Source: an uncultured Gammaproteobacteria bacterium
Lineage (GTDB): Bacteria > Patescibacteriota > Patescibacteriia > Veblenbacterales > UBA10138
Assembly: GCA_964348825.1 (NCBI GenBank)
Contig: CAYGDX010000002.1
Span: forward strand, 15,489-79,488
Length of the DNA stretch: 64,000 bases
Direction of reading: 5' to 3'
Within the stretch, counting starts at the first letter, position 1. Every line of letters starts with the position of its first letter. The notes beneath the pieces are model-generated. The model saw only the letters and a program-made list of their open reading frames with translations, was not told the origin of the DNA and searched no databases. Position numbers and translations under genes: made by a program. Of the stretch, positions 3,613-40,848 are shown piece after piece.

Positions 3613-3684
3613 TCGGGGCACTGGGAATCGAACCCAGTCTACACGCACCCGAAGCGTGTGTACTACCGGTATACTATGCCCCGA
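3613..3684 (-). tRNA. tRNA-Pro (anticodon CGG)
   Basis: Hand-folded cloverleaf. Acceptor CGGGGCA/TGCCCCG, anticodon stem CACGC/GCGTG with loop TTCGGGT, T-arm CTGGG-TTCGATT-CCCAG. CCA is not encoded. Confidence 0.75.
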
Positions 3685-9370: not shown

Positions 9371-11938
9371 TCAAGCGGTCTGGCTATGACCAACTGATTT
9401 AATATTAGATTTATGATGACTAAAATATTTATAATAACTAAGTTTAGCCAATTCTGTTATTACCAAATACACCAAAACAATCCCTAAAATAAGGCCTAAA
9501 GTGCCTATTTTAGGCGTGATAAAACCAAACCAGCTTTGACTTATTGGTATGAATGGCAAAATAATAGTGATGATAGTGGCTGAAGCAGTTAACAATATAA
9601 TAATTAAACTCGGCGCTTTTGTACGCCAAAGTGGCAATTTCGTACGTACTGAAAACAGGAAAGCCAGCTCAGTTAAAATACTAGCGATAAACCAATTAGT
9701 TTGAAGAACTTGCGCCCCTTGTCGATAAAATAATCCAAAAAAAATAAAATCAAACACTGTGCTCACTACCCCAATCAAAACTGTAAACAAAGTAATATCG
9801 CGCAAATTATAACTATGCGGCTCGGCTATTTCACTAGCATCAACTGTATCACTCGCTATTGCCATCATTGGAAAATCACTCAATAAATTAAGTAATAATA
9901 ATTGCACTGGTAGCATTGGTAAAAAATCAACCAATAAACTCGCCACCGCCACGGCGTAAAAATTACCAAAATTAGAAGTCATGGTAGCCTTGATGTACTT
10001 TACCGTGTTAGCAAAAACTAAACGGCCTTCTTTAATGCCATCAATTATAACGTGCAAACTTTTTTGAAGTAGCACAATATCAGCCGCCTCACGCGCGATA
10101 TCGGAAGCATCGCTTACCACCATACCAACATTAGCCACTTTAAGTGCGGGCGCGTCGTTGATCCCCTCACCTAAAAACCCAACTGTATATTTTCTTTCTA
10201 AAATTTCTATTAAACGAAATTTTTGTTCTGGGTTCAGCCGCGCAAATACTGAATAATTTTCCGCCGCTCGCCTTTGCTCAAGCGGACTTAACTGCCAAAA
10301 CTGTTCACCAGTTAAAACCTTGCTCGCATCAGACACCAAACCAACTTCCTTGGCCACTGCGCCAGCTACCTCCGCGCTATCACCAGTTAGCATTTTCATT
10401 TTCACACCTAAACTGCCGGCCGTTTTAACAGCTTCGTGGGTTGTGGATTTGATTGGATCCACAAAAGAAACGGCGCCGACCAAACTAAAATCTTTAAGCT
10501 CATTTAATTTATTATCAGCCGGTGCGACTTTTAAATTTTTTTGTGTAATAACCAACACGCGACGTCCCAACACGCCTTGAGCCTTTACCCAAGTATTTAA
10601 TTCTTCCTCTTTTTCAGCCGCACGTTTTGATAATGATTTGATCAGCACTTCAGCCGCGCCACGCCTTACTAATTCAATTTTTTTACCACGCTGCCACACT
10701 GAAGTATGGTATTTAAGATGCGGATCAAATGGAATATCTATCAATCTTTTTAAATCATCAATATCTTTTTTATCTTTTTCTGCTAAAGCGCCCCAAAGCG
10801 ATAAATCAAAAGCATTGTTGCTAGTGACTTGTTTAGATTGAATTGGCGGTGCCACAGCGGCCGCGCGAAACAGTACTTCAGTACGTGACATTTCCGGCGC
10901 GTAAACTTCCGCCAAAGTTAATTTATTTTCCGTTAAAGTGCCAGTTTTATCAGTACAAAGCACTTCAATTCGCCCCAAATCTTCAATCGCCGATAGTCGC
11001 TTCACCACCACTTTATGTTTAGCCAATCGTAAAGCACCGTGGGCTAAAGAAAAGGTGGTAACTACTGGCAACCCTTCCGGAATTACACTAACCGCCAGCG
11101 CTACGGCAAAAATTAATAAATCTGGTAAATTAACACTCGCACCTTTGATAATTAAATTAGCTACCACCACGCCAACTAAAGTTATTAAAGTTAATTTCAG
11201 CACAAACTTACTAAAACGCCCCATATCTTGCGCAAAACTACTACGCCGACTAGTTTCCGAAACCAACTTACTCACTTCACCTAGGGCAGTTTGTGTGCCA
11301 ATATTAATTACTACTCCTTCCGCCCGACCACTTACCACTGTGGTGCCAGTAAAACACAAATTACTACTAGCCCAGATTTCTTTCGGCGGAACTTCTAAAA
11401 CTTCAATTGATTTTATTTGAGGCACGGCTTCACCAGTTAAAACTGATTCATCAATTGTAAAATTATCAACTACTACTAAGCGAACATCAGCGGGAATAAT
11501 ATCGCCGGGTTCGAGTATTATTAAATCACCCGGCACAAGTTCATTGGAATTTATTACCACTTCTGTACCATCACGCAAAACCTGCGAACGGTGTTCTACA
11601 TATTGGCTAAGCAATCGTAAGGCATGCTCAGATTTATATTCTTGATAAAAAGAAAGGGCGGCATTTATTAAAATAAAAGCCGCAATAAATACGCCGTCAA
11701 TCCACTCGCCTAAAAATAAGGCGAGTAACCCAGCCGCCACCAATAAATAAACAAACGGCGATTTAAATTGGCGAATTAAAATTTTTGGCCAAGTAATTTT
11801 TTCACTAGCAACTAAATTTCGACCATAAGTTTGCGCCCGCAAAACCGCCTCATTTGAAGAGATACCACTTTTTAGATTAACTTTAAGTTCACGTGCGACT
11901 TGATCAATACTTTGAGTTGAATATAAACTAAGATCCAT
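9371..11938 (-). CDS. cation-transporting P-type ATPase (P2/P3-type, Mg2+/Ca2+-like)
   Basis: 855 aa. CTDKTGTLTENK phosphorylation motif, TGDS, and [11 protein letters not shown] hinge. Confidence 0.9.
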   Translation of the reverse strand: MDLSLYSTQSIDQVARELKVNLKSGISSNEAVLRAQTYGRNLVASEKITWPKILIRQFKSPFVYLLVAAGLLALFLGEWIDGVFIAAFILINAALSFYQEYKSEHALRLLSQYVEHRSQVLRDGTEVVINSNELVPGDLIILEPGDIIPADVRLVVVDNFTIDESVLTGEAVPQIKSIEVLEVPPKEIWASSNLCFTGTTVVSGRAEGVVINIGTQTALGEVSKLVSETSRRSSFAQDMGRFSKFVLKLTLITLVGVVVANLIIKGASVNLPDLLIFAVALAVSVIPEGLPVVTTFSLAHGALRLAKHKVVVKRLSAIEDLGRIEVLCTDKTGTLTENKLTLAEVYAPEMSRTEVLFRAAAVAPPIQSKQVTSNNAFDLSLWGALAEKDKKDIDDLKRLIDIPFDPHLKYHTSVWQRGKKIELVRRGAAEVLIKSLSKRAAEKEEELNTWVKAQGVLGRRVLVITQKNLKVAPADNKLNELKDFSLVGAVSFVDPIKSTTHEAVKTAGSLGVKMKMLTGDSAEVAGAVAKEVGLVSDASKVLTGEQFWQLSPLEQRRAAENYSVFARLNPEQKFRLIEILERKYTVGFLGEGINDAPALKVANVGMVVSDASDIAREAADIVLLQKSLHVIIDGIKEGRLVFANTVKYIKATMTSNFGNFYAVAVASLLVDFLPMLPVQLLLLNLLSDFPMMAIASDTVDASEIAEPHSYNLRDITLFTVLIGVVSTVFDFIFFGLFYRQGAQVLQTNWFIASILTELAFLFSVRTKLPLWRTKAPSLIIILLTASATIITIILPFIPISQSWFGFITPKIGTLGLILGIVLVYLVITELAKLSYYKYFSHHKSNIKSVGHSQTA

Positions 11939-12290: not shown

Positions 12291-15077
12291 ATGACACATC
12301 GTTATTTAACATTTTTTACATCACTTTTAATTATTATTTTAACACTCACCGACACAAAAACTTTAGCGCAAACCACCACACCGTTTTACTATGATCGCTT
12401 TGACACCAATGCTTTCCAATTGGTCGGACAAACCACAACCAGTCGTGATCGCATTCGACTTACGCCCGCCCAAGGTAGTAAAAAAGGTGCTATTTGGGAT
12501 TCAACCAAACAAGTTGTAAGCAAACAATTCACAGTTACTTACAAACTTCAAACTAAATATCAAGATACTAGAACTCGCGGCGCCGATGGTTTGGCTTTTG
12601 TAATTCAAAACGAAAAAATTAATGCCATTGGCTACGATGGCGGTAGTATGGGCATCAACATTACAAATAGTGTGGCTTGGCCTTGGGATACTTACTATAA
12701 TGTTGAATATGGTGATCGTAATCGCTTTCACTTGTGCTTACTTACCCGTGGCACTTTAATCAACAACCCCAACCATACCAACGCAATTTTTACTAGTGGT
12801 AGTTTAGCATCCGCGCCTGATACTAATATTCATTTAATTCGCTTAACCTATAATTACGGCAAAATAAAAATTTATTTTGAAGATACTACGCAGGCGTTGG
12901 GTACGACTTATTTGAATTTAAACACTGAACTAAATTTGGATTCTGGCCGGGCTTGGGTGGGCTTTACTGCCGCCACCGGTGGAATTGGCTGGCAAACTCA
13001 TGATATATTATTTTGGTCGTTTGACACTTTAATCAGGCCTCTTCACGAACCAGTAATCATAATTGGCGGTATTATGACTTCCCCACTTTATGATTCAGAA
13101 GATAGCATACTACTTGCGACTGAAAAAATCTGGGCAGACAAAAATCATTTACTCGTACAGCGTGATGATTTTTTACAAGTACTGGAGCTTGCTTCCGACG
13201 GCATAAATCCAGCCCAAAGTAATTATCAAATTAAATTTCCACCCCTTGCCACTACTCCACAAATTCCCACCTTGCAAAATGAGTTAGCCCGTTTACCATT
13301 ATCAACTTATCAACCCTTAGTTCAAGAACTAACTTTACGTGAAAAATATGTCTTGGATAATGGCGATAGTGATCACGGTGAAATGGAAGATTTATTTATC
13401 TTCACTTATGATTGGCGGAAAAGTGCGCAAGTTAATGCTCAAAGATTAAATTTATTGGTGGATAGCGTAATTAAGTGGACAAATTATAACCAAGTAAAAA
13501 TCGTGGCGCACAGTTTAGGTGGTTTGATTACTAAATCTTATGTGGCAGAGTACGGTAGCGATAAACTATCACGAATTGTATTTACTGGCACACCACATTT
13601 GGGCGCGCCGAAAATGGGTTACGTACTTTTAAGTGGCGACCTGATGGGACTATTGGGGTTCGCTGTAAATCACGAAATGATTAAAAATTTAGCGCGAAAT
13701 TTTCCCAGTGCTTATGAATTATTACCCAGCGCTAATTGGTTTAATTTCAGCGGCAATGGCCAAACTTTGAATTCTAATTTATATGGACAATATTTAATAG
13801 CGTCTCGGCAAACTTTGAGTAATTATCCAGCGACGATGAATTATTTAGTCAGGCGACAATTAAATGATGCCGCGGAATTTAACTCGGCACTAATTAATTC
13901 AGCTATCACTAATCAAAACTCTTGGACCAATGTAAACTTTGGCGCTACGGAAATTTATAATGTAGTAGGTTGTAATTTACCAACACCGGGCAGTATTATT
14001 ATTACTTCAGCAAACACTGTACCAATACTTAATTTAAACGGTGATGGTACGGTACCACTTGGTAGTGCGGAAGGAATTAATGATAATTCACGCGCCACAA
14101 TTTATTTATCTAGTGTAAAACATGATGATTTGTGTGCGAATGAAACTGCTGTAAAAATTATAGCTAAATTATTACGCAAAGTAGCTGACACAGTAACGGC
14201 TGGCTACCCATTGGCAAGTACTGTACCGCCAACTAGTTACGGCATAAATACAACTGCTACGCGAGTTGGTTCGCCAGTACTACTCCACGCTTACGATGCC
14301 GAGAATAACCACACTGGCCCAATTAACGATACAACCTGGGAAGCGCAAATTCCGGGGTCAAGTTTTGTGAGCGGTCCTTTGAACGATCCTGAGGCCAGTA
14401 AAATTATTTTACTACCCGCTGGTCAATCTTATCGCACCACTATTACTAATTTACTTGATACGGTATCTAATTTTGATTTATGGTCGCAAAATAATAGTAG
14501 TAATAACGCACCGCAAATAGCCATCTTTAATAATTTAACTTTAGAGAATGGCTCGTCAGCCGCGCGGAGTGATATAAATGAAACCGCGAGTGATTTGGAA
14601 ATTGATCAAAATGGCGATAATGATTACGAAACGATTATTACACCCATTACCAATTTTTCTAAATTACTTGATTCGGGTTGGAATTTAGTTGCCCTGCCAC
14701 TTAAAACCGGAAATGACAGCTTGCTCTCAATTTTTCCAAGCACTCTGCCTTATGGTTTTAGGTTTAATGGGCAATACATATCGAGTGAACAACTTGATTC
14801 AACTAGTGGTTGGTGGATAAAAATTAAAAATGACAACGCAATTGATTTAATTGGACAAAATTTCGCCTTAGACACAATTAATTTAATTAGTGATTGGAAT
14901 TTAATCGGCATTGGTTCAAAGTCAAAAATCGCTACCGAACTCAACACTCTACCGAACGACTTACTCAACAGCCAGTTCTTTAAATACCAAAATGGTTACT
15001 CACCGACTGACACTTTGTACCCTGGCTTTGGCTACTGGATAAAAGCTAAGCAAGCGGGGCAAATAATCCTGCGTTAA
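12291..15077 (+). CDS. secreted L-type lectin domain / alpha-beta-hydrolase (LCAT/PGAP1-like lipase) fusion protein
   Basis: 928 aa with a signal peptide. N-terminal legume-lectin-like block (RIRLTPAQGSKKGAIW ... ADGLAFVIQ). Central lipase nucleophile-elbow motif VAHSLGGLI followed by FTGTPHLGAP. The C-terminal ~350 aa is unassigned. Confidence 0.65.
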   Translation: MTHRYLTFFTSLLIIILTLTDTKTLAQTTTPFYYDRFDTNAFQLVGQTTTSRDRIRLTPAQGSKKGAIWDSTKQVVSKQFTVTYKLQTKYQDTRTRGADGLAFVIQNEKINAIGYDGGSMGINITNSVAWPWDTYYNVEYGDRNRFHLCLLTRGTLINNPNHTNAIFTSGSLASAPDTNIHLIRLTYNYGKIKIYFEDTTQALGTTYLNLNTELNLDSGRAWVGFTAATGGIGWQTHDILFWSFDTLIRPLHEPVIIIGGIMTSPLYDSEDSILLATEKIWADKNHLLVQRDDFLQVLELASDGINPAQSNYQIKFPPLATTPQIPTLQNELARLPLSTYQPLVQELTLREKYVLDNGDSDHGEMEDLFIFTYDWRKSAQVNAQRLNLLVDSVIKWTNYNQVKIVAHSLGGLITKSYVAEYGSDKLSRIVFTGTPHLGAPKMGYVLLSGDLMGLLGFAVNHEMIKNLARNFPSAYELLPSANWFNFSGNGQTLNSNLYGQYLIASRQTLSNYPATMNYLVRRQLNDAAEFNSALINSAITNQNSWTNVNFGATEIYNVVGCNLPTPGSIIITSANTVPILNLNGDGTVPLGSAEGINDNSRATIYLSSVKHDDLCANETAVKIIAKLLRKVADTVTAGYPLASTVPPTSYGINTTATRVGSPVLLHAYDAENNHTGPINDTTWEAQIPGSSFVSGPLNDPEASKIILLPAGQSYRTTITNLLDTVSNFDLWSQNNSSNNAPQIAIFNNLTLENGSSAARSDINETASDLEIDQNGDNDYETIITPITNFSKLLDSGWNLVALPLKTGNDSLLSIFPSTLPYGFRFNGQYISSEQLDSTSGWWIKIKNDNAIDLIGQNFALDTINLISDWNLIGIGSKSKIATELNTLPNDLLNSQFFKYQNGYSPTDTLYPGFGYWIKAKQAGQIILR

Positions 15078-15097
15078 GTAATAAATAATAACAACGC

Positions 15098-15136
15098 AAA
15101 ACCCGAACAAAATATTTGTTCGGGTTTTTTATTTTT
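15098..15136 (+). terminator. rho-independent terminator
   Basis: AAACCCGAACAAAATATTTGTTCGGGTTT followed by a T-run, immediately after the 12291..15077 CDS. Confidence 0.8.
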
Positions 15137-15217
15137 TAATGATTTGTGACATAGCTGTAAGCTTTTTCGTTTGCTTGCCGCATACACGCTGTTAGGTGAT
15201 GTAAAATTTTGTTTGAA

Positions 15218-15952
15218 TTATTCCATCTTACTTCTCTTCTTTTTCCTATGGTTTGTATTCAAATATTTATCCTCAACGAAATAATTAACAGCATAAATAA
15301 AACAAACTAGTCGCCACCAAAATTTGCTTATTTCTTTATAAGTTAAATTATCTCCAAAGCATATTTGGTGTACGTACTCATGTCTCTTTTCAAATAATGT
15401 TCCTACCTGATTTTTCCAATCTGGCAAATTAACTTTTAAGTGTAATTTTGTAACAGAAAAGAAATTTTTCTCTACCTTATTTAATCTATGTTGATGGTTT
15501 TCAACTTCTTCTAAAAAATTGCATTTCAATAGTTTGGAAAAAAATGAATCAATCGTTGTTAAATTTTCAAAAAGCCGATCAATTCCAATTAATTCGCTAA
15601 TTCTAATCGGCTTTCTTGACTTACGTGTTCTTAAGAGTTGATAAGCTTCCCAGATTGTTATTTTTTCTTCCAACAGTTTTTCTAAACCATCATTATTTTT
15701 AATAATCTTTATGTCAGGAATATTTTTTAGAAGATCTTTGAAATAAACTTCCGCGGCTGTAACTAAATTTATTACGTAATTTTTTCTAGCATTAATTTTT
15801 ATTGTTTTAGTTTTTGATTTTTTTTCGACTAAGTAAACTAGCCCTACAGACTCAGCAACCTTTTTGTAAAAAGTTGTAATTGCCTCAGGGCCTCTCTGTT
15901 TAAAAAAATTTCTTTCCTTTTCGATTTTTTTAAGTGCATCTGATAAATTCAT
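15218..15952 (-). CDS. hypothetical protein with C-terminal Rx4H (HEPN-like) motif; third gene of the candidate defence island
   Basis: 244 aa, AT-rich codon usage. FEKRHEYVHQ fits the HEPN Rx4-6H signature. No other recognisable domain. Confidence 0.4.
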   Translation of the reverse strand: MNLSDALKKIEKERNFFKQRGPEAITTFYKKVAESVGLVYLVEKKSKTKTIKINARKNYVINLVTAAEVYFKDLLKNIPDIKIIKNNDGLEKLLEEKITIWEAYQLLRTRKSRKPIRISELIGIDRLFENLTTIDSFFSKLLKCNFLEEVENHQHRLNKVEKNFFSVTKLHLKVNLPDWKNQVGTLFEKRHEYVHQICFGDNLTYKEISKFWWRLVCFIYAVNYFVEDKYLNTNHRKKKRSKME

Positions 15953-16192
15953 AGTAAAATTTTATGTCACCTAACATCTCGGGATATCTGATGTTTGCCG
16001 TAGCGTAGCGGAGACAAATATGGGTGGAGGCTTTTGTATAAAAGCCGTAACCAGATATGCCGTGTTATATGATGTATGCTTTTCTTTTTGTCTCGCCTCA
16101 GCGAGACCACTTTTCTGTAATGAACAAATTTTATTTTTGTCTTGGCGAAGGGGCAGAGGGGCTGGGGGTGAATGCCCCGAAGCCAAGACTCC

Positions 16193-17677
16193 TTATTTTC
16201 TTTCTAATTGCCACTTGTAAACTCTTTTAAGCTCATAAACAGTTATTTCTTCATTTTCTTCACATTCTCTCCCTAATTGTAATTGGATGTTATTCTTTGT
16301 TTTCCATGGATCCATTGAGCTTTCCAACAAGTCTTTTATTTTTGATTTAAAAATATTCGTTATTTGAACATAATTCTCGTCCGTTTCTTGGTCATCAATT
16401 AATATAACATCCTTGGGCTTCAAAAAGGAGTATTTATCGTTTATTTCATACAATGTATCAAATTGATATTCTTTAAATTTTTTTTTACTTTCTTCGTCCA
16501 AAATTATTTTTTTATCTGTATAGATCTTAGAAAACTTACCTTTCTTGAATGTTTTTGGAAAAATGTTAACTCTCTTATACTCATCTGTTAAATTTATCTC
16601 TTTACCATTTATTTTAAGTATGTTTCTGCAGCCTGAAAAAGGCCCCATATCTCCTAGAAAATCCACATAGAGATGTGGAAAATCACAGTAAGTATCCCCC
16701 TTGTCATCAATTAATGCGATGTCGGAGTATTTTATCAAACAATCAATAGTAAAATGACCTTTGTGTTTTCGTGGCAGAAAGTCCCAAAAATCATCGACGA
16801 GTTCTTTATTATCAGATATTTTTTTTCTCTCATCGTTATTATGCTCTCGTTGCAGATGAATCAAATCTACTTCTTTAGTAAAATCCCATTCTTTTTTTTC
16901 TGTGTCTATGTATGCAAAATATTCATGATTATGACACCATAGGCCTACTGGGTGATGACTAAATGCAACATATTCCTTCCAGCGAGGCTTTGTCTCAAAA
17001 TCTTTGTACTCCCGTTGATATGGATAATTTGTATCTTTAAGATCTCTCACTAAAACTGACTTATAAAATTGATGGCCTTCCCCAACGGTTCTGAATAATT
17101 TATTTTTTATACTTACCGCCGATCTGATTTCTGCTGTTTTGGACTTTCTTTTACTTACCAGTGAAATGCCAAAAAATGTGAAAAGTATCCTGTCATTTTT
17201 TGGTAAATGTAGCATGTCTTCCAGCTCTGCCTTTCCCCATAGATAAAATTCCATTACACCTTTTTCTCTAAGTTCTTTACGGAATATATCATATGATTCT
17301 TTAGAAAAATTAGCAGACGCGGCTAAGATATACCCATATGGCGGATTTTTTGCATCCACATCAGAAAGAATTGATTTTATTTTTTTTGGACCTATTTCTT
17401 TTTCTCTTTTTCCTTGAATCATCCATAAGTTTCCCTCCATAGGATGAATCAGTTCTTCTTCGACATTATTTTCGTTTTCGGAAGTAGAAATTATTTCAGC
17501 TTTTTCATATGCACGAATATCAAACCCACTATCGCTTCCGCTTCTCCCAGTAGCTTCAATATTCTGCCAATCTTTAAAATCATATATTAATTCTCGAATT
17601 AAATCCTCAAAGCGATGGGGGTCTAAATCCTCAAAATGTATGGGGTTGTATGTTCTTGTGATTTTAGCTTTTGCCAT
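16193..17677 (-). CDS. Mrr-type restriction endonuclease (PD-(D/E)xK) N-terminal domain protein with unknown C-terminal domain
   Basis: 494 aa. The N-terminus follows the Mrr_cat profile order: FEDLIRELIYDF ... ATGRSGSDSGFDI ... WMIQGKRE ... YILAASANFSKESYD ... EFYLWGKAELEDML. The C-terminal ~300 aa is unassigned. Confidence 0.6.
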   Translation of the reverse strand: MAKAKITRTYNPIHFEDLDPHRFEDLIRELIYDFKDWQNIEATGRSGSDSGFDIRAYEKAEIISTSENENNVEEELIHPMEGNLWMIQGKREKEIGPKKIKSILSDVDAKNPPYGYILAASANFSKESYDIFRKELREKGVMEFYLWGKAELEDMLHLPKNDRILFTFFGISLVSKRKSKTAEIRSAVSIKNKLFRTVGEGHQFYKSVLVRDLKDTNYPYQREYKDFETKPRWKEYVAFSHHPVGLWCHNHEYFAYIDTEKKEWDFTKEVDLIHLQREHNNDERKKISDNKELVDDFWDFLPRKHKGHFTIDCLIKYSDIALIDDKGDTYCDFPHLYVDFLGDMGPFSGCRNILKINGKEINLTDEYKRVNIFPKTFKKGKFSKIYTDKKIILDEESKKKFKEYQFDTLYEINDKYSFLKPKDVILIDDQETDENYVQITNIFKSKIKDLLESSMDPWKTKNNIQLQLGRECEENEEITVYELKRVYKWQLERK

Positions 17678-17746
17678 ATTTCTTAATTAATTGTGCTTTT
17701 TGGAAAATGTGGAGAGGTGAATGCCCCAAAGTTAAAGCTACTTCTT

Positions 17747-19951
17747 TTATCCTTTAGTGATCTTTTCAAGTTTACACTTCGGACAAGTGTATTTCGAATT
17801 AGTTCTGTCATTTACGCTTGACTGCCACTCATGGGAACAATTTGGGCAATGCCAAGATATTTTAATTCTGGAGCCACAAGTCATTAAATCAGCCGAATAA
17901 CCTTGTTTATCATTTTTTTCTTTGTCCCAATATTTCATTAAAATGGGATATTTTTCTTTTACAGACCCTCGATTTTTTAAGATCGTCTTTTTATAGGTAT
18001 CAGTTGATTTTTTTATACCACATAGCGGGCAACTACTTAAATTTCCTGTGGTTCTGTTTGCAATAGCTGTATTCCAAGAATGACCGCAAGTTTTACAAAT
18101 CCACCAAACTTTAATTTTACTGCCCGAATGAATTGTATAAGGATCAATATCTTTGTTTTTTTGAAAATCCCATTCTTTCATCAATTGCGAATTTTGATTT
18201 GCAATACTTTGACAAAATGGACACGTACCTTCACCTTTGCTTCTACTTTTGATAGTTGCTTCCCATTTGTGTCCTTTTATACATTTCCACCCTACTCGTT
18301 TTGAACTTCCTGGCGGATACTCCGTGGGTTCTTTTTTGTTTACCTCATAATCCCATTCTTTTAATAATTCAGGATGTTTATTTGCGAAAGTTCCAGTCTT
18401 TTTTATTCGTATCCCAGTTGCCCTTTCACTTCTATTGTTATTCATACAAATTGGACAACCATAGCCCTTTCCAGTTCTACTTCCAACAGAAGCTATCCAA
18501 CTATGACCAATTAGACACTTCCAATTAATCTTTAAAGAGCTCCCAGCGGAAATTTTATTAGGACTATATGTGTTCATTTCGTAATCCCATTCTCTTAACA
18601 TTTCTGGATGGCTCTGTGCGAATGAAATTCCCTTTTTTGTCAGCAATGATTTTCTCAAATTATTTCCTGCGTTGTCTCTATAGCAAATAGGGCAACCGGA
18701 GTTTCTTTTATGTCTATTTTTTATTGATGCCTCCCAAATATGTCCAAGTTTACATTTCCAATAAACTTTTTTCTCTGAATTTGCAGTAAACATATCCGGA
18801 GTCAGTGGATTGTTTTTTGCAAAATCCCACTCTTTAGCTAGTTCAGGATTAATAAATAGTAAACTTTCTTTCTCTGTTGGTGCTGGTAATAAAGATAAGG
18901 TTTTTTTGAATTCATTTTCTCCTATTTGAATTCTATCTAAAATATATTTATCAAATTTAAGTTTTGGATTAATTTTAGAAATAATTTTTAATACACCGAT
19001 CACTAAGTCAATATATTGAGTTTTTTTATCGTAGAGAACAACATCACCATCTATTTTGGGTAACAAAGAATCTCTAACTCTAATTAGATAAATATTGTTG
19101 TCCTTAAAAATTTTATGTTTTATTAAATCTCTTTCAAGTTTATTGTCGTGCCAATATGCACCATCGATTTCAATCCCAAAACCGTCATTTTTTAAAAGGA
19201 TGTCACATTCGTACCCTTCAATTTTTGACCTCCATTTAACATTTTTGAAAAGTTTACTCATTTCGCAAAGAATAAACACCTCTAATTTTGATGTTGAAGA
19301 TTTACAAAAAGGACAACCGCTATTATTTCCAGTTCTGTTATATATTTGGGCTTCCCATGTATGCCCAAATTTACATTTCCAAAAAGCATTTAAATTACTA
19401 TTAGGTGAAATATCATTGGGGTCTATTTTATTTTTAGCATAATCCCACTCAGTTAATAATTCTGGATGTTTTTTAAATAGAATTACTCCTGTTTTTTCTA
19501 ATCTAGCCTTCCTTATTCTTGCACCCTGATTTGTCCTAGAACATATAGGGCAACCATCGCCTCTAGATCTTCTTTGTGGGGTAGATTGCCACTCATGATC
19601 TTCTTTACATTTAAACCAAAAAAGTAAATGACTTTTCTCCGAGACACTTTCTGGTCTTAGATTGTTTTTAAAATAATTCCATTCAGATAATAGTTCTGGT
19701 TTTGCTTGAGCAAAAGAGAGTCCTTTCTTTAACTTACTTTTTCTTATATTTTCATTTTTTATTGGACTGTTGCATATTTTGCATCCATTACTTCTAATTC
19801 GACTAAAAAACGATACATGGTACGTATGTTCCTTTTTACATTTCCACCAAATCTTCTTTGTGCTTGTTTTGGATAGAATAGAAGGGTTAATACCAATATT
19901 TTTTGAATGGTCAAAGTCCTTTAAAATTTTTGAAAAATCTTGTTTTTCCAT
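17747..19951 (-). CDS. multi-zinc-ribbon (DUF4379-like W-C-GH-W-GCP-C repeats) protein with central DUF559/Vsr-like endonuclease domain
   Basis: 734 aa. About 10 repeats of the pattern (H)PEL..EWDY.KN ... W.C..GH.W ... GCP.C. A central block, YECDILLKNDGFGIEIDGAYWHDN ... RD ... IRVRD, matches the DUF559/very-short-patch-repair PD-(D/E)xK fold. Confidence 0.6.
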   Translation of the reverse strand: MEKQDFSKILKDFDHSKNIGINPSILSKTSTKKIWWKCKKEHTYHVSFFSRIRSNGCKICNSPIKNENIRKSKLKKGLSFAQAKPELLSEWNYFKNNLRPESVSEKSHLLFWFKCKEDHEWQSTPQRRSRGDGCPICSRTNQGARIRKARLEKTGVILFKKHPELLTEWDYAKNKIDPNDISPNSNLNAFWKCKFGHTWEAQIYNRTGNNSGCPFCKSSTSKLEVFILCEMSKLFKNVKWRSKIEGYECDILLKNDGFGIEIDGAYWHDNKLERDLIKHKIFKDNNIYLIRVRDSLLPKIDGDVVLYDKKTQYIDLVIGVLKIISKINPKLKFDKYILDRIQIGENEFKKTLSLLPAPTEKESLLFINPELAKEWDFAKNNPLTPDMFTANSEKKVYWKCKLGHIWEASIKNRHKRNSGCPICYRDNAGNNLRKSLLTKKGISFAQSHPEMLREWDYEMNTYSPNKISAGSSLKINWKCLIGHSWIASVGSRTGKGYGCPICMNNNRSERATGIRIKKTGTFANKHPELLKEWDYEVNKKEPTEYPPGSSKRVGWKCIKGHKWEATIKSRSKGEGTCPFCQSIANQNSQLMKEWDFQKNKDIDPYTIHSGSKIKVWWICKTCGHSWNTAIANRTTGNLSSCPLCGIKKSTDTYKKTILKNRGSVKEKYPILMKYWDKEKNDKQGYSADLMTCGSRIKISWHCPNCSHEWQSSVNDRTNSKYTCPKCKLEKITKG

Positions 19952-20210
19952 GTTTTTACTTTAAATAAATCGTTTTCGTAGTGGAGCGGAGAAAACACCT
20001 TATACCCCTCTTTAATTAATGAAAAAGAAATTTGAAGATTTTTTAAAATAATCGAGCGATAGCCCAGAAAAGGAATATTCCAGCTAACTCGTTTGTATGC
20101 GAGTAGATTAATGTTTAATGTTATTAAATTATATATTATGCGAATATAAAGTATTGTAAATATAATTTAATTGACTTTAATATAGCATATTTAAGTAAAA
20201 AAAATAACTA

Positions 20211-40286: not shown

Positions 40287-40360
40287 TGGCAGGGGGTGAA
40301 GGAATCGAACCCACGCTAGAGGTTTTGGAGACCCCTGTACTACCATTATACTAACCCCCC
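40287..40360 (-). tRNA. tRNA-Trp (anticodon CCA), CCA encoded
   Basis: Hand-folded. Acceptor GGGGGGT/ACCCCCT, anticodon stem GGGGT/ACCTC with loop CTCCAAA, T-loop TTCGATT. The T-stem has one mismatch. Confidence 0.7.
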
Positions 40361-40374
40361 ATAAGTAGGCGCAC

Positions 40375-40530
40375 CTACTTCGTTTCTTTATGCATCGCGT
40401 GCTTCTTGCACCATTCACAATGTTTTTTCAATTCCAAACGTGTTTTCACTTTCTTCTTATTACGGAAGGTGTGATAATTGATGCGGTGACAAGCACTGCA
40501 TTCCATTTTTATAAGATTATCTTGAGACAT
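40375..40530 (-). CDS. rpmG: 50S ribosomal protein L33
   Basis: 51 aa, below the ORF-track cutoff. MSQDNLIKMECSACHRINYHTFRNKKKVKTRLELKKHCEWCKKHAMHKETK has the C4 zinc ribbon and typical L33 spacing. Confidence 0.85.
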   Translation of the reverse strand: MSQDNLIKMECSACHRINYHTFRNKKKVKTRLELKKHCEWCKKHAMHKETK

Positions 40531-40584
40531 AATATTAGAAATAATAAATAATAAAAATCATTATTACAAGCTTCGGTTTTTACA

Positions 40585-40660
40585 TGGAGCCGATGGTCGG
40601 GTTCGAACCGACGACCTACGGTTTACAAAACCGTTGCTCTACCAGCTGAGCTACATCGGC
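40585..40660 (-). tRNA. tRNA-Thr (anticodon UGU)
   Basis: GCCGATGTAGCTCAGCTGGTAGAGCAACGGTTTTGTAAACCGT ... GGTTCGAACCCGACCATCGGCTCCA, cloverleaf folded by hand. Confidence 0.85.
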
Positions 40661-40661
40661 G

Positions 40662-40749
40662 TGGTGGGTGGGATAGGATTCGAACCTATGAAGCCACGAG
40701 GGCAACTGGTTTACAGCCAGTCACGTTTGACCACTTCGTTACCCACCCC
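40662..40749 (-). tRNA. tRNA-Tyr (anticodon GUA), long variable arm
   Basis: GGGGTGGGTAACGAAGTGGTCAAACGTGACTGGCTGTAAACCAGTT ... GGTTCGAATCCTATCCCACCCACCA. Confidence 0.8.
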
Positions 40750-40775
40750 TACAAAAACATAATTTCTCCACCCTG

Positions 40776-40848
40776 AGCCGTTGATCGGAATTGAACCGAT
40801 GACCTACTCCTTACCATGGAGTTGCTCTACCAGCTGAGCTACAACGGC
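40776..40848 (-). tRNA. tRNA-Thr (anticodon GGU)
   Basis: GCCGTTGTAGCTCAGCTGGTAGAGCAACTCCATGGTAAGGAGT ... GGTTCAATTCCGATCAACGGCT. Confidence 0.8.

Follow-up and report, generated by a model that had tools for sequence, protein, structure and literature searches.

Integrons and Xer/dif recombination are the described systems closest to the element reported here. In integrons, each open reading frame (ORF) is followed by an attC site, such as the 59-base elements or, closest to the case here, the VCRs of Vibrio cholerae (sequence-conserved repeats of a sedentary chromosomal integron), which is an imperfect palindrome of ~60-140 nt. Integron integrases are thought to have derived from Xer-like enzymes by gaining the I2 helix, which led to the recombination of folded single strands (PMC4792948; PMC7790495). 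A spacer of comparable form lies at positions 15953-16192 of a 64,000-nt stretch of DNA (the window; positions 15,489 to 79,488 of the forward strand of contig CAYGDX010000002.1, assembly GCA_964348825.1, placed by GTDB in Patescibacteriota, UBA10138), between the second and third genes of a three-gene island on the minus strand. A comparison with other genomes makes it probable that this spacer is the tail and recombination site of a mobile gene cassette, which would belong to an integron-like platform served by an I2-less recombinase of the Xer type, with a primary site that resembles dif.

The original prediction had taken the spacer for a GC-rich, structured element with three hairpins, and these direct observations are borne out. 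The GC content of the spacer is 44.6%, as against 27.9% in gene 3, 32.3% in gene 2, 32.2% over the island and 36.7% as the mean of the window. A GC content as high or higher occurs in 8% of the window's 240-nt windows; against the island the spacer stands out as GC-rich, against the genome only moderately so. The hairpins are present where they had been placed: GGCTTTT-GTAT-AAAAGCC at 16029-16046, hairpin 2 (GTCTCGC-CTCA-GCGAGAC) at 16090-16107, and hairpin 1 (GTCTTGGC...GCCAAGAC) at 16139-16189. Additionally, folding of the spacer surpasses that of shuffled sequence on both strands (z = -4.2 and -3.9), and covariation is found in the helices of two of its parts, hairpin 1 and the core site described below. 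The 15-mer repeated 3' of two stop codons is likewise not a product of chance: GGGGCATTCACC occurs exactly twice in the 64 kb, both times on the minus strand (16167-16178 and 17716-17727), where ~0.17 copies are expected. Both copies begin 12-20 nt past a stop codon, that of gene 2 or gene 1, and the likeness between the two regions reaches 26 of 33 nt.

The wider comparison reveals that the spacer does not belong to a particular gene. In L005, a locus from a Patescibacteria metagenome-assembled genome (MAG), a gene 2 homologue with 87% protein identity is followed by ~205 nt that are ~98% identical to the spacer, so that the non-coding DNA is better conserved than the gene; the identity stops just short of the start region of gene 3. 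The 64 nt from the gene 2 stop codon, which comprise AATAAGGAG and hairpin 1, recur ~120 nt upstream of the core site in ~55 loci (L085 onward), and tblastn finds no gene 2 match in those loci. The full ~235-nt module, at 95-98% identity, follows ORFs of 460, 207 and 824 aa or an opposite-strand gene in L131, L153, L171 and L163, one of which is labelled Nanoarchaeota, and its distance from the stop codon varies. This result does not support the proposed roles of the spacer in the three-gene system, whether as a signal for processing or attenuation or as a small RNA, since the whole ~235 nt also trails unrelated genes and marks cassette boundaries in arrays. What stands is a conserved, structured non-coding element with compensatory changes in two parts; an RNA element of the gene trio does not.

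A coding role was also considered: the spacer could specify a small protein rich in Pro, or extend gene 2 by read-through. It is spanned by two ORFs, one of 71 aa on the minus strand and one of 66 aa on the plus strand; the former (71 codons, 15971-16186) lies in the frame of gene 2 directly past its TAA, and several homologous tails keep this frame open across hairpin 1. However, the window and L005 differ by 1 nt in the length of the H3 hairpin loop, an indel that shifts the frame; more indels are found in loops, and the substitutions in stems are compensatory, not synonymous. Because the indel shifts the frame and because the same DNA trails unrelated genes at varying distances from their stop codons, in differing offsets and phases, the spacer is regarded as non-coding, and the coding reading retains almost no probability.

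The part of the spacer beside gene 3 was used to derive the motif GTTAC-N13-19-TCCACCCATATT-N1-3-CTCC, with which 185,579 species genomes were scanned. Matches were found in 102 species genomes, where by estimate ~6 are expected by chance. The consensus of ~110 nt reads ACATC-NNN-TAAC-A-CGGCATATCTG-GTTAC-GGCTTTTATACAAAAGCC-TCCACCCATATTTGCC and continues with TCCGCTACGCTAC-GGCAAACAT-CAGATATGCCG-AAAC-GTT|R-NNN-GAAAT; sites are 100-140 nt long overall, and the mean column identity is 87% for sites from about 75 species genomes. Covariation supports a three-way junction with an 11-bp closing stem, flanked by ...TAAC and GTTA... boxes. In 75 sites, 90.7% of the proposed pairs are formed (26-41% with slid partners), 19 pairs have changed on both sides, and none of 500 shuffles reaches these values. 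Of the pairs in the closing stem, 95% are formed and 6 have changed on both sides; RNAalifold yields the same three helices. Two co-varying variants exist, one with CGGCA/TGCCG and TTTGCC/GGCAAA and the other with GCGTA/TACGC and TTTTGC/GCAAAA. AAC (columns 11-13) and GTT (columns 104-106) are invariant in the 75 sites, and the window reads ATATAAC ... GTTAGGT; the remaining positions of the R'' (RYYYAAC) and R' (GTTRRRY) boxes fit the consensus only in part.

Some sites depart from this structure. Short variants of ~60 nt (L015 4540-4600, L014 3670-3730 and L018 3577-3640), which are closer to an ordinary attC, carry a simple 10-bp hairpin (GCGTRTATGC...GCATACACGC) in place of the three-way junction, between ...TAAC-A and AAAC-GTTA. 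In the chimeric sites of L091, L093, L138 and L147, the left stem half is CGGCA and the right half is TACGC, so that pairing is broken, which suggests exchange or gene conversion within the site, beyond G|TT alone. In addition, GC-rich mini-hairpins of 15-35 nt (e.g. CTGCCTGCCGGCAGGCAG) are inserted in the loop TCCGCTACGCTAC of the third helix in L097, L121, L123, L140, L174 and L179, and the same loop holds a mini-hairpin in the L100 cassette leader; this loop seems to be a hotspot of small insertions.

A structure conserved in this manner might be selected mainly as RNA, that is, as a 3'-untranslated-region terminator, stabiliser or processing signal or as a small RNA, with its placement reflecting the boundaries of transcription units. 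The folding of both strands far beyond shuffled controls, the compensatory changes in the helices, and the invariant loops and junction strands are in keeping with such a role; moreover, hairpin 1 starts directly past stop codons, and the plus-strand hairpin at 16090-16107 fits the pattern of a terminator. The counts of mismatched pairs point the other way. Where columns pair, G:T and A:C are equally common (site, 17 vs 21; hairpin 1, 17 vs 20). This fits selection on a DNA palindrome and not selection on one transcribed RNA strand; these counts are symmetric and thus silent on which DNA strand folds. On the sense strand, hairpin 1 is followed by an A-rich run and not by a U-run, and Rfam, searched at gathering thresholds and at E <= 10, gives no match in the spacer; it holds no attC family. 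An RNA function also leaves unexplained why identity breaks at G|TT, why a cassette's own ends are complementary, and why the arrays are tightly linked to a divergent recombinase gene and a dif-like platform site is present, all of which are described below. As the principal explanation, a functional RNA is considered improbable; an additional role at the RNA level, for example hairpin 1 as a 3' end structure, is possible.

The motif matches are mostly from Patescibacteria (Magasanikbacteria, Saccharibacteria, Peregrinibacteria, Uhrbacteria, Buchananbacteria, Falkowbacteria, Peribacteria and Paceibacterota), and a few fall under DPANN, Methanoregula or other bacterial labels. Near-identical sites are present in the archaeal-labelled MAGs of L114 (Pacearchaeota), L153 (Nanoarchaeota), L090 (Altarchaeum) and L143 (Methanoregula), and L114 also has a recombinase and a platform site. 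These sites reflect either sharing between domains or mis-binned contigs of the candidate phyla radiation (CPR). A scan of viral contigs gave one full site with a gene 2-type arm, in L187 (IMG/VR UViG_3300001336_000172, 10684-10795), at the end of a 10.8-kb contig.

The sites are organized in arrays. A profile of the site identifies at least two sites in 45 loci, of which 44 have all their sites on a single strand. Neighbouring sites are spaced by a median of 1345 nt, and in 60 of 65 intervals between sites the longest ORF shares their strand. A covariance model (R1) extends the collection to 199 sites in 88 loci. The cargo consists of diverse accessory genes, usually a single ORF between sites, and includes an alpha/beta-hydrolase, a racemase, Fic, a D-Ala-D-Ala ligase (Ddl), a DNA methyltransferase, GNAT, an LD-carboxypeptidase, a 2H phosphoesterase, RibD_C, a protease, SDR, a glycosyltransferase and unknowns.

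The L005 array is headed by the gene of a 273-aa tyrosine recombinase. Its homologues are present in 15 loci with sites, and in 13 of them the gene is upstream of and divergent from the array. As an independent test, four homologues were chosen only on protein similarity and contig size, one of them from a complete 1.0-Mb genome; all four adjoin divergent arrays, in which 2-6 sites are interleaved with minus-strand ORFs. Additionally, 11 of 12 loci have a platform site, nTTCGCATAnA-AACGAG-TTAnnnGAAAT, in fixed geometry within the interval that separates the recombinase gene from the first cassette. Its 11-6-11 layout is that of dif, a duplex with two ~11-bp arms on either side of a 6-8-bp centre, and its arms (TTCGCATAA.. 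and TTAnnTGAAAT) resemble those of the E. coli dif site, GGTGCGCATAA and TTATGTTAAAT. The distance from the start codon of the recombinase to the arrangement TTCGCATAnA-N5-GTTAnnnGAAAT is 60-195 nt, and upstream of the platform site there is often a second TTCGCATAA box.

The best NCBIfam model for the recombinase is TIGR02249 (integron integrase, 217 bits), followed by an archaeal XerA/integron-integrase model. Among structures in the PDB, XerA (4a8e) is the best match, with 138 bits over the full length, and IntI4 scores 127 bits; the alignment to VchIntIA (2a3v) is in two pieces, and the C-terminal SPL of that protein is shared. The family comprises thousands of Patescibacteria members of ~270 aa, which are named XerD, tyrosine recombinase or 'integron integrase' in the sources. 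It probably corresponds to the 'Cand' Xer-like subgroup, which is confined to candidate phyla (Smyshlyaev et al., bioRxiv 10.1101/542381).

The arrangement of the arrays also bears on whether the module is a selfish, non-autonomous repeat of the repetitive extragenic palindrome (REP) or miniature inverted-repeat transposable element (MITE) type, which would carry terminal inverted repeats and spread by transposition or gene conversion, unconnected to the recombinase. Cassette ends do bear imperfect inverted repeats of considerable length (21 to ~75 nt or more), near-identical copies occur in distant genomes, and the chimeric sites suggest gene conversion between copies. However, these inverted repeats have no flanking target-site duplications and no transposase is encoded, the sites are co-oriented with each other in 44 of 45 loci with the ORFs on the same strand, and each array that was examined starts at a dif-like site beside a recombinase gene. 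The single copy in the 64-kb window indicates that the element is not dispersed. Such a repeat is very unlikely to be the right description, and somewhat less likely than a functional RNA.

In light of these data, a cassette of the integron-like platform can be divided into conserved parts, with leaders of ~190 nt and tails of ~125 nt. Hairpin 1 of the tail has a 17-bp stem and the loop TTCACCCCYnARCCCCTCT, which is C-rich and conserved; in 43 sequences found behind different genes, its pairing is 85% (32-51% in slid controls), and 10 pairs have changed on both sides. Besides an R' arm and a small hairpin, the leaders contain the motif AGAGGGGnATAAGG and a further hairpin with a loop, TCCGCTnCGCTAC, that copies the third-helix loop of the site. 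Leaders homologous to that of gene 1 precede unrelated first cassettes in L005, L088, L100, L112, L169, L175 and L091.

The cassette boundaries were located by comparing 75 metagenomic gene 2 loci, a subset of which retains the tail. In the tail-keeping loci, an inverted copy of part of the tail is found ~80-150 nt upstream of gene 2, and this copy, GTTATATGAAATATGCTTTTCTTTTT...CACTTTTCTATAATGAACAAATTTTATTT, opens the gene 2 cassettes of L005, L011, L012, L014, L015, L017 and L019-L021. The conserved 5' sequence begins exactly at G|TTATATGAAATATGCTTTTCTTTTT (G|TTATATG) in at least 8 gene 2 loci, the upstream flanks of which are unrelated, and the identity between sites downstream ends right past GTT. 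The four bases past GTT at the cassette start are fully complementary to the R'' box of the cassette's own end in 21 of 54 cassettes; full complementarity between both halves of one and the same site occurs in only 11 of 130 cases. Because own ends are complementary more often than the halves of one site, the crossover is placed at G|TT. The same argument from complementarity historically set the crossover of integrons at G|TT. As a separate candidate, the 75-nt inverted repeats around gene 2 were considered as transposon ends and rejected, because target duplications and a transposase are absent and the junction module moves with the upstream cassette.

These boundaries suggest a mechanism in which the spacer would serve as a 3' boundary module, with a ~125-nt tail followed by a ~110-nt recombination site. 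The tail would consist of the hairpin with the C-rich loop and then of inverted-repeat arms that mirror the cassette's own 5' leader, giving a cassette of the form TTAnnnGAAAT-leader-ORF-tail-site-G. The ~270-aa Xer/IntI-like tyrosine recombinase would insert and excise cassettes through a crossover at G|TT between the cassette-borne site and the dif-like 11-6-11 platform site beside its gene, and repeated insertion may then build co-oriented arrays, as in integrons. The comparison speaks directly to conservation, structure, arrays, recombinase linkage and cassette boundaries; from these, we infer the catalysis of the exchange by the recombinase, the action of the site as folded single-stranded DNA, and the choice of strand.

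The corresponding features of the window, in the order in which they are read on the minus strand, are as follows.

20134-20145, minus strand: second TTCGCATAA box near the platform site
20077..20104, minus strand: putative platform site (dif-like attI analogue) at the head of the cluster; left arm ACTCGCATACA, 6-nt centre AACGAG, right arm TTAGCTGGAAT
19955..20088, minus strand: generic cassette 5' leader upstream of gene 1; homologous leaders stand before unrelated first cassettes
20066-20088, minus strand: R' arm of the leader, GTTAGCTGGAATATTCCTTTTCT
20053-20065, minus strand: small hairpin of the leader
19996-20012, minus strand: G-rich motif of the leader, AAGAGGGGTATAAGGTG
19972-19996, minus strand: leader hairpin GTTTTC-TCCGCTCCACTAC-GAAAAC, a weak match to positions 58-82 of the R1 model
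17747..19951, minus strand: gene 1, 734 aa, cargo of the first cassette
17711..17746, minus strand: truncated generic tail after gene 1 (36 nt), including the second 15-mer copy (17716-17730)
16193..17677, minus strand: gene 2, 494 aa, cargo of the second cassette
16139..16197, minus strand: start of the tail, with AATAAGGAG overlapping the gene 2 stop codon, then hairpin 1; the first 15-mer copy lies inside
16139-16189, minus strand: hairpin 1, conserved C-rich loop TTCACCCCCAGCCCCTC
16064..16138, minus strand: inverted-repeat arms at the cassette 3' end (arm a at 16108-16138, hairpin 2, arm b)
16090-16107, minus strand: variable hairpin 2, GTCTCGC-TGAG-GCGAGAC; compensatory GTTCCGC/GCGGAAC in L171 and L012
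16064-16089, minus strand: arm b, AAAAAGAAAAGCATACATCATATAAC, ending in the R''-like box ATATAAC
15964..16075, minus strand: putative core recombination site (attC analogue), R1 125.5 bits, E = 1e-31; opens with ACATC-ATA-TAAC, then A
16052-16062, minus strand: core-site stem CGGCATATCTG
16047-16051, minus strand: invariant GTTAC of the core site
16029-16046, minus strand: core-site hairpin GGCTTTTATACAAAAGCC
16019-16028, minus strand: invariant TCCACCCATA of the core site
15994-16018, minus strand: core-site hairpin TTTGTC..GGCAAA
15980-15990, minus strand: closing stem half CAGATATCCCG of the core site, then AGAT, then G|TTAGGTGACAT
between 15975 and 15974, minus strand: inferred crossover
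15953..15975, minus strand: start of the gene 3 cassette, with R' arm GTTAGGTGACATAAAATTTT, ACT and ATG
15218..15952, minus strand: gene 3, 244 aa, weak RiboL-PSP HEPN match, cargo of the last cassette
15168..15210, minus strand: end of the gene 3 cassette, with R'' arm AAAATTTTACATCACCTAAC (15191-15210) and truncated site AGCGTGTATGCGGCAAGCAAACG (15168-15190), from which the closing stem half is missing

The cluster in the window reads as an orphan, in which a platform site would be followed by gene 1, whose tail is truncated, by gene 2, whose tail and site are complete, and by gene 3, whose site is truncated. Only one copy of the full site is found in the window by blastn, nhmmer and an unfiltered covariance-model search, the remaining matches being noise (E >= 0.2), and tblastn finds no recombinase gene in the 64 kb. 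The exact frame of gene 3 is a 21-nt inverted repeat, TGTTAGGTGAYRTAAAATTTT (19 of 21 nt; 15190-15210 vs 15956-15976), and the ends of this cassette agree (AGGT/ACCT); gene 3 appears to be a minimal cassette with matched R' and R'' arms and hardly any leader or tail. Past its distal arm, the sequence continues with TAAC-A-GCGTGTATGCGG, and the same words open the short-hairpin variants of the site in L018, L015 and L014. The unit of gene 1 and gene 2 has an AGCT-type R' arm at its start and an ATAT-type R'' arm at its end, and it is therefore read as two fused former cassettes. The second copy of the 15-mer is explained in the same manner, because 17711-17746 would be the remnant of gene 1's own tail.

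The GC skew is uniformly negative over the whole 64-kb window. The possibility that the window's platform site is the terminus dif is not supported, as there is no GC-skew switch within the 64 kb. An Rfam search over the window returned only tRNAs, and within 15000-20200 nothing beyond chance-level matches (E >= 0.3). The window's tRNA genes comprise four clustered at 40290-40848 (minus strand) and three more at 3613, 55008 and 63061.

The products of the island differ in their distribution. In gene 1, eight DUF4379 treble-clef zinc-finger repeats surround a weak endonuclease core of Vsr/MTES_1575-like type, and gene 2 has an N-terminal Mrr-type PD-(D/E)xK nuclease domain and a C-terminal domain without assignment. 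More than 1200 homologues of gene 2 were found, with 50-87% identity and labels that include Patescibacteria, Deltaproteobacteria, Nitrospirota and Asgard archaea, as against only 6 of gene 3, and the neighbourhoods of both vary from locus to locus. A conserved gene 2-gene 3 pair with a private spacer was rejected on these grounds, the small number of gene 3 homologues and the changing neighbours of both genes.

In PADLOC, gene 2 matches PDC-M58A only weakly, and genes 1 and 3 have no match. Outside the CPR, homologues of gene 2 are often found in defence islands, for example beside CBASS. Gene 2 looks like a candidate stand-alone defence nuclease that is rapidly transferred horizontally. The nearest homologue of gene 3 (59% identity; L007, 3266-4559) lies in a defence island with an IS110-family transposase, GmrSD and an OLD/reverse-transcriptase pair, and the cassette site is absent from the region of this homologue.

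Several observations weigh against reading the spacer as part of an integron-like platform. The case for recombination is entirely comparative, and the window itself has a single complete site and no recombinase. The score of 217 bits for TIGR02249 is below its curated cutoff of 265, and all NCBIfam Xer and IntI models remain below their cutoffs; the recombinase lacks the additional (I2) domain that IntI has around patch III, with 20 residues where VchIntIA has 63 (178-240). It could also be a housekeeping Xer, the arrays lying merely beside its gene. Additionally, the unpaired GTTAC and TCCACCCATATT are invariant, which is unusual for attC and could mean a role as RNA, or one in protein binding, that has nothing to do with recombination. 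The site is also asymmetric: a single nt (A) separates R'' from L'', and L' is separated from R' by 4 nt (AAAC). This is the reverse of a canonical attC, in which the extrahelical bases are on the R''-L'' arm and set the choice of strand. The labels outside the CPR of some MAGs may be binning errors. The platform appears integron-like in its working, yet it lacks two defining features of integrons, the additional domain of IntI and the structure-only conservation of attC, and its unpaired bases are placed differently.

As a broader interpretation, the chances are about even that the platform is a previously undescribed gene-capture system of the CPR, possibly shared with DPANN, that combines an I2-less Xer-type recombinase, a dif-like platform and three-way-junction sites, and that would either survive as an intermediate between Xer/dif and integrons or have reinvented the integron independently. 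In the literature, no description was found of integrons or attC sites in CPR/Patescibacteria, nor of the site motif, and the motif is absent from the supplements of the archaeal-integron paper. If the interpretation is correct, the transition from Xer to integrons would become directly testable with an I2-less enzyme, folded sites and a dif-like platform. A main route by which genes move horizontally would also come to light in CPR bacteria, which have ~1-Mb genomes and few recognised mobile elements, and the system could account for identical cassettes under bacterial and archaeal labels, as for gene 2, which is 50-87% identical across phyla. The R1 model or the 112-nt consensus offers a simple marker of accessory and defence cargo in CPR metagenomes, and the leader, tail and site could be parts for genetic tools in the CPR.

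The platform can also be set beside known systems. With REP sequences, bacterial interspersed mosaic elements (BIME) and MITEs, it shares short, structured and highly similar intergenic repeats with inverted repeats; in contrast to these, the sites here are strictly co-oriented, are confined to a single locus next to the recombinase gene, have a defined crossover and show no target duplications.

The resemblance to Xer/dif lies in the Xer-like recombinase, whose best solved relative is the archaeal XerA, and in the 11-6-11 platform site, which adjoins the recombinase gene as in XerS/difSL; that system and XerH/difH have a single recombinase, with dif beside the xer gene. As in the elements that exploit Xer/dif (the CTX/TLC integrative mobile elements exploiting Xer, or IMEXs, XerH/difH and pdif modules were compared), directly repeated sites separate integrated elements. 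The cassette sites, however, are folded structures of ~110 nt and not duplexes of 28-31 bp, and the cargo consists of single genes instead of phages or islands. The pdif modules of Acinetobacter are bounded by inverted sites, whereas the sites here are direct, and, unlike a terminus dif, the platform site of the window is away from any GC-skew switch.

The likeness to integrons is more extensive. The outer ...AAC and GTT... boxes, the paired inner region and the G|TT crossover are those of attC, the start of a cassette is complementary to its own end, and the arrays are co-oriented and carry diverse single-ORF accessory cargo. The tyrosine recombinase gene is divergent at the head of the array, and a separate platform site precedes the first cassette. 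In contrast to IntI, the recombinase has ~270 aa and no I2 domain, and in contrast to attC, the sequence of the site, including its unpaired bases, is near-invariant over many genera, its centre is a three-way junction, and its asymmetry is on the L'-R' side. The cassettes have conserved leaders and tails and, unlike those of integrons, may not be promoterless. The platform site is dif-like, not attI-like, and the hosts are CPR bacteria and possibly DPANN archaea.

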